DNA of 64,000 nucleotides, from positions 32,001 through 96,000 of the IMG/VR virus record IMGVR_UViG_3300012964_000010. One strand, written 5' to 3'. Made by a program: the position numbers and the translations under genes. Shown here one piece after another: positions 3,974 to 60,603 of this stretch. The first letter of the stretch is position 1. Every line of letters begins with the position of its first letter. This DNA comes from a virus. The notes below the pieces were generated by a model that saw only the letters and a program-made list of their open reading frames with translations, was not told the DNA's origin and ran no database searches.

Positions 3974-5440
3974 TTATCGTTTCTTAAGAAAAGCCCGGAG
4001 GCCGGCGGCGCCTTCTAATGGATTTACTTTTGTAGAAGCAACGTTGGATCCCGGAGTACCTGTGACCTTTGTTACTTCACCAGTAGTTGGATCAATTTTT
4101 TCACCAGATCTAATTACACTTTTCTTCTGCAACTGTTCATAAATGCTCTTCGAAGATGCCTTAATCGCATCATCGTCGCCTTCTTCGAGGTCACTAATTC
4201 TTAGACTCTTATTGTTGAATGCTAAATCGACTTTGGAACCGACACCAGAACTCGAGCGAGTTTTCATAAATTGAATTTGGTATCGGCCACCTTCCTTCAT
4301 AGCTGCACTTGTAAAAATACCAATCACGTTATCTGCTGTGTTGACTTTAGAAATACCGCCGGCAATGTGACTTGGATCAAATTCAATTTCCTCATAAGAG
4401 CCACGATTTAACTGCGAAGCCGAGACAGTAACAATTTGCAATTCGACTGCCAAGTTACGCAATTCTTCAGTTACATATTTGTCCTTGACAAATAGATTTT
4501 CTGCAGAAATCTTCTTGCTCATTGGCATCATTAAATCTAAATAATCAACAAGAATTGCATCAACTTTAATGCCGGCTTGTATTTCATATTCTTTAATATA
4601 TGCTCGAACATCATTAGAGGTACAGCCATTTGGCAATTGCTTGATTCTTAAAGAGCCCCTATGCTTCATTTGAGAAGCTCGAAGTTTCATATGAACATCA
4701 TCAATATTGCGCATCACTTCGCGTGTTTCGTAACCTGTGTGCATTGCATCAATACGCATTGCACATAAATTTTCACTAAGTTCAAGCGAAAGATAAACCA
4801 CATTTAAACCAGATAAGGCCCAATTTACTGCAAGGTTCTGCAAGAACAAGGATTTACCTGCACCGGACTGTCCAGCAAAGATAGTAATTTCACCTTTGTT
4901 TAGACCACCATATAGCTTTTCATCTACTGTTTTCCATCCTGTCGATACCTGACCTTTTCCTTCGCGGATAGATTCAAGTCGTTCTTTTGGATTGGCGTAG
5001 TAATCTGTTCCAAGATCCTTGACCAGTGCAATCTGAACTGCTGCCTTAATAGTCGCTTCAACTTCACCGTAACGTCCCTCGTCAAGATATTCTGGTGAAG
5101 CTAAAATTGCATCACGCAGCGCTTTGTGACGACAAAATCTTTCAAATTCCCGAAGAAACCAATTATCGTGCTTTGCAGCCTCGACTTCCATTAAAAAAAT
5201 GTCTTTATCGGTTACTGCCTTAATCTGTTGCAATGACGGAATATTTGAATAATCTGTGCTGTAAGATTCGATGAAAGCAATTGTGTCTTTATTTTGCTTA
5301 TTATCAAAATATTGCGGCTTGATAATACCTTTACAACGAATAAACAGGTCGGGTTTACTCACCATAAAGCTAATAAACAAATCCTCTATTTCCTTGCTAT
5401 AATTTGTAATTTCGCTTGTGTTTTCTTCTTCTTTCATCAT
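3974..5440 (-). CDS. 41: Replicative DnaB-like helicase (T4 gp41-like)
   Basis: Walker A GQSGAGKS, ILVDYLDLM, SASQLNR. Confidence 0.95.
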   Translation of the reverse strand: MMKEEENTSEITNYSKEIEDLFISFMVSKPDLFIRCKGIIKPQYFDNKQNKDTIAFIESYSTDYSNIPSLQQIKAVTDKDIFLMEVEAAKHDNWFLREFERFCRHKALRDAILASPEYLDEGRYGEVEATIKAAVQIALVKDLGTDYYANPKERLESIREGKGQVSTGWKTVDEKLYGGLNKGEITIFAGQSGAGKSLFLQNLAVNWALSGLNVVYLSLELSENLCAMRIDAMHTGYETREVMRNIDDVHMKLRASQMKHRGSLRIKQLPNGCTSNDVRAYIKEYEIQAGIKVDAILVDYLDLMMPMSKKISAENLFVKDKYVTEELRNLAVELQIVTVSASQLNRGSYEEIEFDPSHIAGGISKVNTADNVIGIFTSAAMKEGGRYQIQFMKTRSSSGVGSKVDLAFNNKSLRISDLEEGDDDAIKASSKSIYEQLQKKSVIRSGEKIDPTTGEVTKVTGTPGSNVASTKVNPLEGAAGLRAFLKKR

Positions 5441-44405: not shown

Positions 44406-44507
44406 TGGTAGGAGGGGTGGGAATCGAACCCACGTTGCCCGCCTTATCTAGACGGTGCTTTACGAGTTTATAAGGCTCGCCCTTCGGCCAACATTAGCAA
44501 CCCTCCC
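44406..44507 (-). tRNA. Atypical 102-nt tRNA, anticodon UAU, very long variable arm
   Basis: GGGAGGG/CCCTCCT acceptor, canonical T arm, loop CTTATAA, CCA. Confidence 0.7.
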
Positions 44508-46234: not shown

Positions 46235-47659
46235 TTAAAAATCATATCTCTGTACCATTACGGTCTTTAGAAGAATCGACAGAGGTGTCATTTCCTCACC
46301 ACCGAGCACTGACTTAACAATGCTTGGGCTGAATCCAGACACAAGTGCAGTACCAGCCTCGTTGTATGTGACAGGGCTGTTACCAGCTCGTCCATTCAAG
46401 TTCCAATATACAACTTGTGGTAGTTCGTACCCTGCGGCCTCGTACTCACTTCTCATCATATTCATTGCACTCACTGATACAGCAGCACCTCCGTTCCAAC
46501 GACCGTAACTGTTACCCACTGTTACACAGGTGTTAAATTCCATGTCCGATAGGATCAGAAGCTTTGTAGGCATATCTGCCTTAGCAACACTGTGCTTCTT
46601 AGCAGCACCAAGAATTAACTTGAATGCAGCCTGAAGATCGGTGCTACCCGACCAGTTGGATCGCTCCATCTGGTTGTAACGCTGCTGAAGATTGCCAGCG
46701 ACCTTCAGCATTGCTGGCTGGCTAGAGAAGGTAATGAACTGATCCTTAAATACACCACCTGCGCGTTCGGAAACATACAGACCCAACGAGATAGCAACAT
46801 CCAGTGCAGTTACGCTACCAGACACATTTACACCATCCATCGAACCAGAGACATCAACCAACGGCATGATGTTTTCATTGGAGCCTTCCAAATAGTTAGG
46901 CAATGCCTTCCACTGTTCATTAGCTACTGTAGCGTCACCGTTACGCATAGAACGAATCACATCGTAAGGAAAAGCAACCGACGCATTGATCTTAGCTTCA
47001 CCGGATACCAGCTTTTCCTTGTATGCGGAGTAACCTACCGGGTCGTGCTTCAAGAATGCCTTCTGGTAACGACCAGCAGCAACCGACGGAACGTGAGGAT
47101 ACACAATCTTAGACCAATCCTGTGCACACATCTTCTGTTCAACAGTGTTGGACAGACCTACCAGTAACTTACGATACTGCTTAGGTGTTAGACGCATATA
47201 AGAACGGATCTTATTTGCTTCTGCACCCTGACGTGGCATCCACTTAGCACATAATCCATCCTTTGCATCGTTCAATGCAAAAGAAATCATACGCAAAGCT
47301 TCTCGTTCAATTGGTGTACCGAGTGCAATAATCACATCGTCCCAACGACCAAGTTCGGGCATCTTCACCAATACTCGTGCAGCCAAAGCAGGTTCGGTAC
47401 GAACAAGATAGCCAAACAACTTACGGAAGGTTTCGCGCTCGCCGGCGCCACCACGTGCATCACGTGCCCATTCAAGGACACGAACTGCAACTTCAGAATC
47501 TTCGGCCAACGCACCTGCAAAAGTAGAGGTAATATCCTTGCCACGACTTGCGCCGGCCAAGAAAAATAGATCCACGTTCTTGTTCAGAGACGAGGCATTG
47601 GTAACTGCGCCGTTGGCAGTTGTTGCGGATGCGTTTACAGCTTCAAATAGTGTGCTCAT
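46235..47659 (-). CDS. DUF2828-family TROVE/Ro60-like protein with C-terminal vWA domain
   Basis: RDARGGAGER, GRWDD, AKWMPR, MIDAS DVSGSM, LSDMEF, YWNL; start at MSTLF with SD AAGGAG. Confidence 0.88.
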   Translation of the reverse strand: MSTLFEAVNASATTANGAVTNASSLNKNVDLFFLAGASRGKDITSTFAGALAEDSEVAVRVLEWARDARGGAGERETFRKLFGYLVRTEPALAARVLVKMPELGRWDDVIIALGTPIEREALRMISFALNDAKDGLCAKWMPRQGAEANKIRSYMRLTPKQYRKLLVGLSNTVEQKMCAQDWSKIVYPHVPSVAAGRYQKAFLKHDPVGYSAYKEKLVSGEAKINASVAFPYDVIRSMRNGDATVANEQWKALPNYLEGSNENIMPLVDVSGSMDGVNVSGSVTALDVAISLGLYVSERAGGVFKDQFITFSSQPAMLKVAGNLQQRYNQMERSNWSGSTDLQAAFKLILGAAKKHSVAKADMPTKLLILSDMEFNTCVTVGNSYGRWNGGAAVSVSAMNMMRSEYEAAGYELPQVVYWNLNGRAGNSPVTYNEAGTALVSGFSPSIVKSVLGGEEMTPLSILLKTVMVQRYDF

Positions 47660-47672
47660 TTTAATTTCTCCT

Positions 47673-47708
47673 TCAGAATTTATTTTAAGTTTGCTGTTAA
47701 AATTCTTT
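47673..47708 (-). promoter_or_regulatory. Motif copy 1 (minimal stem) in the DUF2828 5' UTR
   Basis: AAAGAATTT-TAACAGCA...AAATTCTGA abutting the SD. Confidence 0.6.
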
Positions 47709-47722
47709 ATTAGCAAGTATGT

Positions 47723-55209: not shown

Positions 55210-55282
55210 TGGTTGCGTACCCCTGATTCGAACAGGTCCTACGGGTTATGAGCCCGGCGTGCTACCTTCACACTCGGCCGCG
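55210..55282 (-). tRNA. Initiator-like tRNA-Met(CAU), atypical stems
   Basis: CGGG-CTCATAA-CCCG, C1:A72 mismatch. Confidence 0.75.
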
Positions 55283-58992: not shown

Positions 58993-59071
58993 TGGTCGGA
59001 GATGAGGGATTTGAACTCTCATTATTCCTCGTCCCAAACGAGGTGCCATAACCAGGTTAGGCGAATCTCCG
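58993..59071 (-). tRNA. tRNA-Pro(UGG)
   Basis: CCTCG-TTTGGGA-CGAGG. Confidence 0.92.
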
Positions 59072-59638
59072 AATAAATTCTTCTACATACTTATCGATTA
59101 TATCCATTACTTCATCTTTATATCGACTATGCACATATTGATGATGTGTTGGACATAACGGAACTAAATTTTCTATCCTATCATCGTCGTGGTCCTCATT
59201 GTAATGATGGACTGCAACGATTTTATCTTCTTTACAGACTACACATTCTTTCTTGTGCTGTGTAAAGCACAGAGACTGATATCGTTCTCCAGACCAGTTT
59301 CCGTTATTTATACCAGACCTAAAATGTTTATTAGCGCAACTTCGGGAACAAGTTCCTTTGCTATTCTTATAATCCTTAATGGGCTTTTCACAAACTGCAC
59401 ACTTTATTAAATTTACCGGATTTAAAAAACACGATTTTTCATGCTTCTTAATATTATTACAAATTACATCTGTCTTACAGTATTTACATTCAACATTATA
59501 CAGTCTTTTGGCAAAATCTGCAGGTTTCACATGCCCTTTATAGGACAAATGTGCCTTAAGAGCCTTCTCACTCTTATATACCTTACCATTCTTAGGACTT
59601 GTGTATGTCCCATCAGTATTCTTATATTCTTGCATCAA
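59057..59638 (-). CDS. HNH endonuclease with Zn fingers; stop codon inside tRNA-Pro
   Basis: VHHY.E.H......NLVPLCPTHH; CSRSCAN. Confidence 0.85.
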   Translation of the reverse strand: MMQEYKNTDGTYTSPKNGKVYKSEKALKAHLSYKGHVKPADFAKRLYNVECKYCKTDVICNNIKKHEKSCFLNPVNLIKCAVCEKPIKDYKNSKGTCSRSCANKHFRSGINNGNWSGERYQSLCFTQHKKECVVCKEDKIVAVHHYNEDHDDDRIENLVPLCPTHHQYVHSRYKDEVMDIIDKYVEEFIRRFA

Positions 59639-59689
59639 CTATTTATGCTCTGTGCATAAGTTTTGCTCAAATACTGAACACTGACCAAA

Positions 59690-60082
59690 AATTTCTGCTC
59701 GTCTAAAGTATCCAACCACTTCAGGCTAACGGTTCGGCCCCCGATATGTTTTTTGCTTCCATGGAAAGAACGGTGTTACTATTCACCCGGGTTATCCCTT
59801 AGTGGATCCCACGAAACTGCTGGACGAGTATAGTATAGCCCAGTCATATACTACTTCGATTAACGTCTCGAAACCCGACGGGTATACATCACGCAATATA
59901 CCGGTGCGTGGATTCTATGTTCGAAACAATATTCGAGGCTGTTTCTAACGCTTCAACTCGCGAATCATTTTTAGTGCCATGACTAAGGCAGTTGCATGAG
60001 TTGCCACTATGTCCCTTGTTTAAAGAACCGGTGACTTAGTTCTACCGAAACATTTTTACACCAGTTCGGCATCGGTGCGAAT
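59690..60082 (-). ncRNA. Candidate ~390-nt multi-pseudoknot ncRNA downstream of tRNA-Val
   Basis: No ORF >=60 aa; three H-type pseudoknots and several hairpins. Confidence 0.6.
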
Positions 60083-60085
60083 AGT

Positions 60086-60159
60086 TGGTACCTCGTTGGA
60101 GAATTGAACTCCCGTATCCACCGTGTAAGGATGGCGTTCTACCATTAAACTACCGAGGC
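60086..60159 (-). tRNA. tRNA-Val(UAC)
   Basis: CCATC-CTTACAC-GGTGG. Confidence 0.9.
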
Positions 60160-60603
60160 TTTATATTCTTGCAAATACTTATTTCGTTTTGTTACTTTCT
60201 TGTATCTATTACCCTGCCCTTTGCTGCCAAAGAATTCTGTCTGTGTATGGCAATTTGGACAAAGTAATTTTAAATTTTGTGGTATGTTATTGTCACTGTT
60301 ACCGTCAGTGTGTTCTAATTGTAATGTAAGTGGTTTGTCTTGCCAAGTGGCACCAAGCCCACATTCAAAACATTTCTCACCAAACTTTTCTGCCAGATAC
60401 TTTTTTAAGGCGTCGGGACCGTCGCACTCACCGCGTTCAATCCTTGGTACAGTCTCTGTATACCATCTATATGCCCCATGGCATACATTACCACAAAACT
60501 TATTTGCTTTGCTCCGGCCCCAGTCATTCACACTGTTACAATGTAAACAATTGTATTTCTTGTTACTTCCTTTTATTCCACTCGGCATATCATAGACCTC
60601 CAC
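60145..60603 (-). CDS. HNH homing endonuclease; stop codon inside tRNA-Val
   Basis: EHTDGNSDNN...NLKLLCPNCH; paralog of 56079..56522. Confidence 0.88.
   Translation of the reverse strand: MEVYDMPSGIKGSNKKYNCLHCNSVNDWGRSKANKFCGNVCHGAYRWYTETVPRIERGECDGPDALKKYLAEKFGEKCFECGLGATWQDKPLTLQLEHTDGNSDNNIPQNLKLLCPNCHTQTEFFGSKGQGNRYKKVTKRNKYLQEYKASVV

Follow-up and report, generated by a model that had tools for sequence, protein, structure and literature searches.

A conserved, non-coding and pseudoknot-rich fold, shown by comparative analysis to be under purifying selection, lies next to a transfer RNA (tRNA) gene in a 64,000-nucleotide (nt) stretch of the viral record IMGVR_UViG_3300012964_000010 from IMG/VR. 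This stretch (the window, bases 32001-96000 of a 127-kb record estimated to be about 32% complete) carries the element at positions 60085-59689 on its minus strand, with tRNA-Val(UAC) on one side and an HNH-like gene on the other. Two modules, M1 and M2, make up the element. We favour the interpretation, at a probability of about 0.5, that they represent one or more stable, highly structured non-coding RNAs (ncRNAs) of an uncatalogued family, belonging to a clade of uncultured giant myophages, and that these RNAs would be released from a tRNA transcript and would act as an RNA particle.

The search for relatives, by profile and by reading, started from a neighbouring protein of 227 amino acids (aa) and led to five related loci in viral contigs (loci in other phages carry L numbers). 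Four of the five keep the order tRNA-Leu(UAG), tRNA-Val(UAC), gap, tRNA-Pro(UGG). The window RNA aligns to the gaps of L003 and L006, which are free of open reading frames (ORFs), and partly to L004; L002 and L005 hold nothing comparable. Conserved blocks of the alignment served as search patterns, which returned 4, 10, 6 and 6 stretches in viral contigs and 16 in metagenome contigs. Two exact-pattern scans of cellular genome contigs, which detect near-consensus motifs and not diverged relatives, returned 0 and 1 stretches, the lone match being a chance one in a GC-rich coding region. Matches were sorted by nhmmer, ARAGORN, reading and a covariance model of the 3′ half (R1). L010, L011, L012, L014, L020, L024, L028, L034 and L035 were set aside as chance pattern hits by nhmmer, ARAGORN and reading, and R1 missed all nine. 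True homologues are present in 20 other phage records from two overlapping collections, giving 11 further distinct M2 sequences and one locus with M1 only (L004), and every one of them lies within the interval from tRNA-Val(UAC) to tRNA-Pro(UGG), the records of L009 and L023 ending before tRNA-Pro. R1 produced 13 matches (12 distinct) in 25 sources. It found one copy in a complete 369-kb relative and none in the records of L004 and L005. M2 is single-copy in the 127-kb record (one nhmmer match). At the DNA level the RNA is 61-72% identical among homologues, compared with 64-66% for the neighbouring protein gene. A distant-mode blastn search of 50,697 phage records, with the RNA as query, gave no match, and megablast of 12 kb matched tRNA-Leu and nothing else.

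Decisive support for the predicted fold comes from comparing these sequences. The 12 distinct M2 sequences were aligned with MAFFT (A2), and seven helices were tested on the alignment, both stems of the pseudoknot PK-B among them: in 26 of the 37 pairs both partners have changed, the alignment outdoes 500 of 500 shuffles on each of five measures, and 81.4% of cells pair, compared with 28-46% when the partner is slid. A model-fitted alignment of the 3′ half (A6), itself biased to structure, has changes on both sides in 17 of 21 pairs. PK-B keeps its topology in 11 of the 12 sequences, and 10 of its 13 pairs change on both sides, the second stem reading GGUAUAU/GUAUACC, GGCAUAU/AUAUGCC, ACCAU/AUGGU, GACAAUC/GAUUGUC or CCUAC/GUAGG. 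MAFFT does not align PK-A and PK-C correctly, so each was sought as a pair of crossing stems under positional constraints chosen after the homologues had been seen. It misaligns H6, PK-0 and the terminal hairpin of M1 as well; the pair counts on A2 and on A5 (the alignment of ten M1 units) therefore leave out these three and PK-C, and the outer pair of H4b is lost to gaps. An unconstrained pseudoknot search was dropped, having returned many alternative chance knots. In the H-type search of the window RNA alone, shuffles equalled the observed score in 0 of 300 cases for PK-A, 3 of 300 for PK-B and 1 of 300 for PK-C, and summed scores beat 200 of 200 dinucleotide shuffles for each of the three. 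The crossing pair of PK-A was returned in nine of 12 M1-type units, with the expected stems in eight, and for PK-C at most 5 of 300 shuffles matched the score in six of the 12 sequences. G-U pairs in several helices identify the tRNA strand as the sense strand. A preliminary description of the window, made from its letters, had placed the pairings of PK-A, PK-B and PK-C on the minus strand exactly where we find them, and its proposal of at least three H-type pseudoknots is borne out by the relatives, which show the same topologies even though both stems of each have undergone compensatory changes. We would now put the number at probably more than three, with up to six pseudoknot-type folds in 394 nt, three of them beyond PK-A, PK-B and PK-C.

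Both modules share an ending, made of the motif GAA-N-CGUUAG, a hairpin and a short tail finishing in AAU(U), and in each the GAA of this motif can pair with the final hairpin loop. For H6, the last hairpin of M2, the loop and upstream sequence of relatives can pair as CCGAA/UUUGG (CCGAU/AUUGG in L021 and CCGAAU/AUUUGG in L017); in the window CCGA (59737-59734) can pair with UUGG of the H6 loop (59715-59712), the computed best there being GCCG/UGGU. The terminal loop of M1 may pair with an upstream UUGAA (UUGAA/UUCGA), and the stem beneath it varies yet pairs in relatives (GAAACAG/UUGUUUC, UAGGGA/UCCCUA, GGUG/CACU and others). The helix that closes M1, P1, is nearly invariant and therefore gives no covariation evidence. 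The P2 stems that follow it covary (GCAUC/GAUGU, GCACC/GGUGU and GCGUC/GACGU). PK-0, the extra H-type pseudoknot of M1, is enclosed by UGUUU/AAACA (60052-60017), and by eye its second stem varies yet pairs in relatives as AGAGU/ACUCU, GGUC/GACC or GGAG/CUCC. Coordinates are collected in Table 1.

Table 1. Parts of the RNA, their neighbours and related sites; window positions unless a record or an L-numbered locus is named.
Feature	Position	Strand	Remarks
tRNA-Val(UAC), encoded CCA	60159-60086	minus	ARAGORN; Rfam tRNA 50.1 bits; RNA begins directly 3′
M1, 170 nt	60082-59913	minus	closed by P1; holds P2, PK-0, PK-A, conserved block and terminal hairpin; alignment A5
P1 helix closing M1	UUCG 60081-60078 / CGAA 59923-59920	minus	UUUCGC/GCGAAA in relatives
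P2 hairpin CACC/GGUG	60077-60058	minus	followed by conserved GUAAAA; in 9 of 10 units
PK-0, extra H-type pseudoknot	60047-60024	minus	CGGU/ACCG crossing AGAAC/GUUCU; read by eye
PK-A	59990-59963	minus	UGCC/GGCA crossing AGUCAU/AUGAUU
Conserved block CGCGAGUUGAAGCGUUAG	59962-59945	minus	18 nt; M1 copy of end motif GAA-N-CGUUAG
M1 terminal hairpin, loop CCUCGAAUA	59945-59923	minus	loop A/G-UUCGAAAA in relatives
M2, 224 nt	59912-59689	minus	best conserved part; alignment A2; R1 113 bits
PK-B	59910-59881	minus	CACGCA/UGCGUG crossing GGUAUAU/GUAUACC
H2 hairpin, CGUUA in loop	59875-59853	minus	4 of 7 pairs change both sides; 81.5% of cells paired
PK-C	59853-59820	minus	UAGUAUA/UAUACUA crossing CUGGGC/GUCCAG
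H4 hairpin GGG-AUCC / GGAU-AA-CCC, AA bulge	59810-59789	minus	7 of 7 pairs change both sides
H4b hairpin, conserved 8-nt loop A(A/G)UAGUAA	59787-59772	minus	outer pair G-C versus A-U by eye
H5 hairpin, 4-nt loop CAUG	59768-59756	minus	4 of 5 stem pairs change both sides
Near-invariant block AAACAUAUCGGGGGCCGAACCGUUAG	59751-59726	minus	26 nt
H6 hairpin, UUGGA in loop	59724-59703	minus	5 of 6 pairs change both sides
3′ tail CGAGCAGAAAUUU	59701-59689	minus	conservation among homologues ends after AAUU(U/C)
HNH endonuclease gene 59638-59057 with 50-nt 5′ flank	59057-59688	minus	between RNA and tRNA-Pro, outside RNA; Pfam HNH_3 E = 0.007
HNH cassette sites	window 59057-59688; L017 ~4075-4697; L023 from 1477	minus (window)	
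tRNA-Pro(UGG)	59071-58993	minus	conserved downstream neighbour of RNA; ARAGORN
Permuted two-piece tmRNA, tag ANNEMFALVA	record 98687-99150	minus	2.7 kb past window end
M0 loci	L003 8540-8620; L006 7927-8007; L027 2282-2360		also L017, L023, L032
57-60-aa ORF	L017 5191-5361; L022 3621-3785; L025 3756-3920; L031 6900-7064; L032 4635-4805		

That the roughly 390-nt stretch is free of ORFs, as first described, holds on re-examination of the same sequence. The longest table-11 ORFs within the RNA region encode 34 aa on the minus strand and 48 aa on the plus strand, and each frame has five to nine stops of at least two kinds. No frame opened on read-through of TAG, TGA or TAA singly (longest run 104/148 codons), a relevant point since relatives carry tRNAs of the suppressor type. 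These tRNAs, of amber (CUA anticodon) and ochre (UUA anticodon) suppressor type, lie a few kb from the RNA, at 3834-3909 in L004, 4527-4601 in L006 and 4519-4665 in L009. The homologous stretches of L003 and L006 are ORF-free too, the short ORFs there being unrelated, and the GC content of the RNA is 45%, compared with 39% for the window. A reading in which the stretch is no RNA at all, being either a DNA-level element (a homing-endonuclease target or palindromes bound by protein) or else a protein gene that has decayed or been recoded, could draw on the flanking HNH genes, on the cassette that sits exactly at the RNA 3′ end in three phages, on H5 being a DNA palindrome as well and on the suppressor-type tRNAs. 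However, the compensatory changes affect crossing helices, and some involve G-U pairs, which would be mismatched in DNA and on the other strand, and neither the stop reassignments nor L003 and L006 reveal a reading frame; we regard this reading as already largely refuted and its chances as minimal.

The distribution of the modules bears on how many RNAs the stretch would specify. M1 stands by itself between tRNA-Val and tRNA-Pro in L004; several M1-like units together with M2 fill the entire 776-nt tRNA-to-tRNA interval of L013; a third module, M0, is joined directly to M2 in L027, L022 and L032; and ORFs occupy the exact module junctions of L023, L022 and L032. Because the modules are found alone, multiplied or parted by ORFs in relatives, M1 and M2 probably fold independently and may be separate RNAs. 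The single RNA of about 390 nt in the preliminary description thus stands as a structured, ORF-free stretch, and not necessarily as one molecule. M0 itself is 70-81 nt long and closed by UGGC/GCCA, with covarying inner hairpins, and precedes M1 or M2; no copy was found in the 127-kb record. In L023 (~846-1118), ORFs of 90 aa and 40 aa are inserted exactly at the M1/M2 junction. A conserved ORF of 57-60 aa, starting MRSKEQDLIDIMFQVAL, lies between tRNA-Val and the RNA or between modules in five relatives.

At its 5′ side the RNA starts 0-4 nt past the CCA of tRNA-Val, and in the window, as had been noted, it adjoins the end of that tRNA at 60086. At its 3′ side it ends in AAUU(U/C), in L013 1 nt before tRNA-Pro. 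A scan for sigma-70-type promoters and terminators found sites at or below shuffle expectation, with none within the RNA. From its position and established tRNA maturation, we propose that M1 and M2 are transcribed within the phage tRNA polycistron. The 5′ end would be released by 3′ trimming of tRNA-Val, and the 3′ end, in the ancestral arrangement, by RNase P cutting at tRNA-Pro. Between modules, the single-stranded A/U tails, which we take to resemble RNase E sites, could offer further points of cleavage. Least certain is the proposed mode of action, in which the RNA would work in the form of an RNA particle and not as a regulator in cis. From context one might guess at an accessory role in connection with the translation and tRNA machinery of the phage.

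Embedding between two tRNAs, with ends that coincide with the tRNA ends and no promoter- or terminator-like sites beyond shuffle expectation, would also suit a cis-acting structured spacer, whose folds organise the processing or insulate the folding of the adjacent pre-tRNAs and whose excised pieces are degraded. We consider this unlikely: the same tRNA-Val and tRNA-Pro are retained without the RNA in L002 and with M1 only in L004; near-invariant single-stranded blocks of 26 and 18 nt and six pseudoknot-type folds exceed what a spacer needs; and the RNA is intact in the window, L017 and L023 despite the HNH gene that separates it from tRNA-Pro.

That HNH gene is one of two that the preliminary description saw on either side of the RNA. 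By Pfam this holds weakly, the HNH (E = 0.0029) and HNH_3 (E = 0.007) matches both falling below the curated cut-offs. The downstream ORF overlaps into tRNA-Pro(UGG). As a cassette with its 50-nt flank directly 3′ of the RNA, it is present in the window, L017 and L023 only, where it directly follows the RNA tail AAUU(U/C); the 5′ flank is conserved and ends GAGCAUAAAUAG. On this comparison the HNH gene downstream of the RNA entered later, by insertion, and is common to the window phage and two others. The same cassette at an identical point in three phages suggests a homing site at the RNA/tRNA-Pro junction. Elsewhere in the window, encoded proteins include a tail sheath and a T4-type large terminase, the latter 59% identical to its counterpart in Pseudomonas jumbo phage PA5oct. 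About 49 tRNA genes are present in the 127-kb record, along with a permuted transfer-messenger RNA (tmRNA), all on the minus strand; tRNA genes lie at 72.5-120.2 kb of the record, on a single strand and mixed with small ORFs and HNH genes. The Rfam tRNA model also scores 36.7 bits at 44409-44507 and 30.7 bits at 55214-55281 (minus strand), at sites absent from the ARAGORN list, which may be odd or degenerate tRNAs. A 493-aa protein at 46235-47716 (minus strand) has DUF2828 and DUF7788 domains and a weak VWA match.

A self-complementary loop in M2 bears on the particle proposal. Among the 12 distinct sequences the H5 loop is CAUG in seven, CUAG in three and CGCG in one, and is thus Watson-Crick self-complementary in 11 of 12 through three sequences; the central dinucleotide has therefore changed at least two times with self-complementarity kept. 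Covariation that keeps a loop self-complementary was the reasoning by which OLE and GOLLD were credited with kissing loops between molecules (PMC12286853). Adjacent loop nucleotides cannot pair within one chain, and the covariation of the H5 loop hints at a contact between RNA copies; an extended intermolecular duplex is equally possible, since the H5 stem itself belongs to the palindrome. M2 would then probably self-associate through the H5 loop, as GOLLD and ROOL do, and this ranks with the least certain parts of our proposal. Taken further, the RNA might form a third class of ornate phage RNA that self-assembles, unrelated in structure to the other two, in which tandem modules cut from the tRNA transcript, with M2 copies joined by the symmetric H5 loop-loop contact and possibly by the AAUU tails, which are self-complementary, would build an RNA-only particle that acts on tRNAs or ribosomes in giant-phage takeover. 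We hold this elaboration to be doubtful; if true, modules that vary in number and order (M0, M1 in zero to three copies, M2) would make a natural kit for constructing RNA assemblies.

Several observations weigh against a structured, particle-forming RNA. We infer its expression, function, ends, processing and self-association from sequence; a look-up of sequencing runs returned five, all of them DNA. The minimum free energy z-score of the window RNA is unremarkable (-1.39 on the sense strand, -1.71 on the other), and on a single sequence alone the case for structure would be weak; the comparison in turn draws on only 12 distinct M2 sequences. PK-C is weak or differently built in six of these (weaker in five, unfound in L019). 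No PK-A was returned in three of the 12 units, namely L009, L017 and the second unit of L013, and the PK-A of L003 consists of other stems at chance level (123 of 300 shuffles). PK-0 and the terminal loop pairings come from our reading of the alignments. H5 may simply be a hairpin: its 4-nt loop is unable to kiss without opening of the stem, and the loop of L027, GCUGCGGC, is not Watson-Crick self-complementary and needs G-U pairs. Finally, the element is dispensable: among the five relatives found through the protein, two have the full RNA, one has M1 only and two have none, and R1 finds no copy in two complete genomes, those of Pseudomonas phage PA5oct and Sinorhizobium phage Phosso.

Such an accessory, patchy distribution, together with a modular build of variable copy number and mobile HNH genes around, would also be expected of an anti-defence decoy, in which the modules imitate an RNA of host or phage (a tRNA or something like a type III antitoxin) and titrate one of the host's nucleases or sensors. 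RNA antitoxins with pseudoknots are known, as are phage mimics of such antitoxins. However, the units measure 170-225 nt rather than a few tens and form no short identical tandem repeats; a search for a ToxI-like type III antitoxin array found no tandem repeat at a score of at least 30 and only imperfect direct repeats of 12-18 nt, and the neighbours are HNH genes and tRNAs. ARAGORN and Rfam detect no cloverleaf or tRNA-like domain, and no partner gene co-occurs, the small ORF of L017, L022, L025, L031 and L032 being missing from the genome record of the window phage. A decoy therefore appears improbable.

The serial H-type pseudoknots raise the further idea of a tmRNA-derived or helper RNA, a detached pseudoknot string that would work with the two-piece tmRNA of the phage on the ribosome. 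The permuted tmRNA lies 6.6 kb off on the same strand, and 12 nt, GUUGAAGCGUUA (window 59945-59956, and L003), are identical to the pseudoknot region of Escherichia coli K-12 ssrA, with a colinear 8-mer, CAAGCGAA, in L003. Like tmRNA (SsrA), the element would be a chain of H-type pseudoknots in an RNA of about 400 nt among phage translation genes. Unlike tmRNA, it has no CCA end, tRNA-like domain or tag reading frame (ARAGORN) and no Rfam tmRNA match at E <= 10, as the preliminary description, which saw no tRNA-like domain, had indicated. Moreover, the 12-mer has a best blast E value of 0.17, nhmmer --max with the family profiles against ssrA gives nothing at E <= 100, and the phage's own tmRNA shares nothing beyond 9-mers. 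We judge such an origin very unlikely, and continue with the favoured reading of a separate, uncatalogued RNA.

Searches of Rfam 15 with the whole window at gathering thresholds, with 59400-60400 at E <= 10 and with eight homologous loci at E <= 1 returned tRNAs and chance hits only. At these last two settings there was no match to the covariance models of GOLLD (RF01998) and ROOL (RF03087), to neither of which the RNA had been matched in the preliminary description, nor to known ribozymes (group I and II introns, RNase P RNA, twister, HDV-like, hammerhead, pistol and hatchet). The RNA likewise has no Rfam match to HEARO or OMEGA RNA and no IscB-type gene beside it, the flanking HNH ORFs encoding 152 and 193 aa. 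The suggested novelty thus stands, and a new RNA family, of the kind in which an ornate phage RNA sits beside tRNAs, is the best reading. The stable RNAs C and D of phage T4 (species 1 and 2) are non-tRNA RNAs of about 120-140 nt and of unknown function that are co-transcribed and co-processed with T4 tRNAs; our element is like them in being a non-tRNA RNA in a tRNA cluster, and is set apart by size and by the blastn search of 50,697 phage records, which gave no match. A literature search returned no description of the RNA; fragments may sit in the supplementary tables of PMC10690425, which compiles 8,495 candidates for structured RNAs, 29-151 nt in length, from IMG/VR.

GOLLD and ROOL, as portrayed in PMC12286853, are large, pseudoknot-containing phage ncRNAs of unknown function that often lie beside tRNA islands. 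Unlike them, the present RNA is known only from one clade of uncultured giant phages and from sequences alone. Like both, it is phage-encoded, large and pseudoknotted and adjoins tRNA genes, and it shares with GOLLD (and OLE) a self-complementary loop with palindrome-preserving covariation. GOLLD and ROOL have recently been shown to form RNA-only cages, whose role is still open. Large structured RNAs of unknown function are rare, and ours would be a further, unrelated family from the same niche, phage tRNA islands, in which sequence comparison supports four to six pseudoknot-type folds with unusual clarity. In contrast to ROOL (~580 nt) and GOLLD (>800 nt), it measures about 400 nt and consists of separable tandem modules; this build reveals which parts stand alone, and at about 170-400 nt they are small enough for direct structural work.

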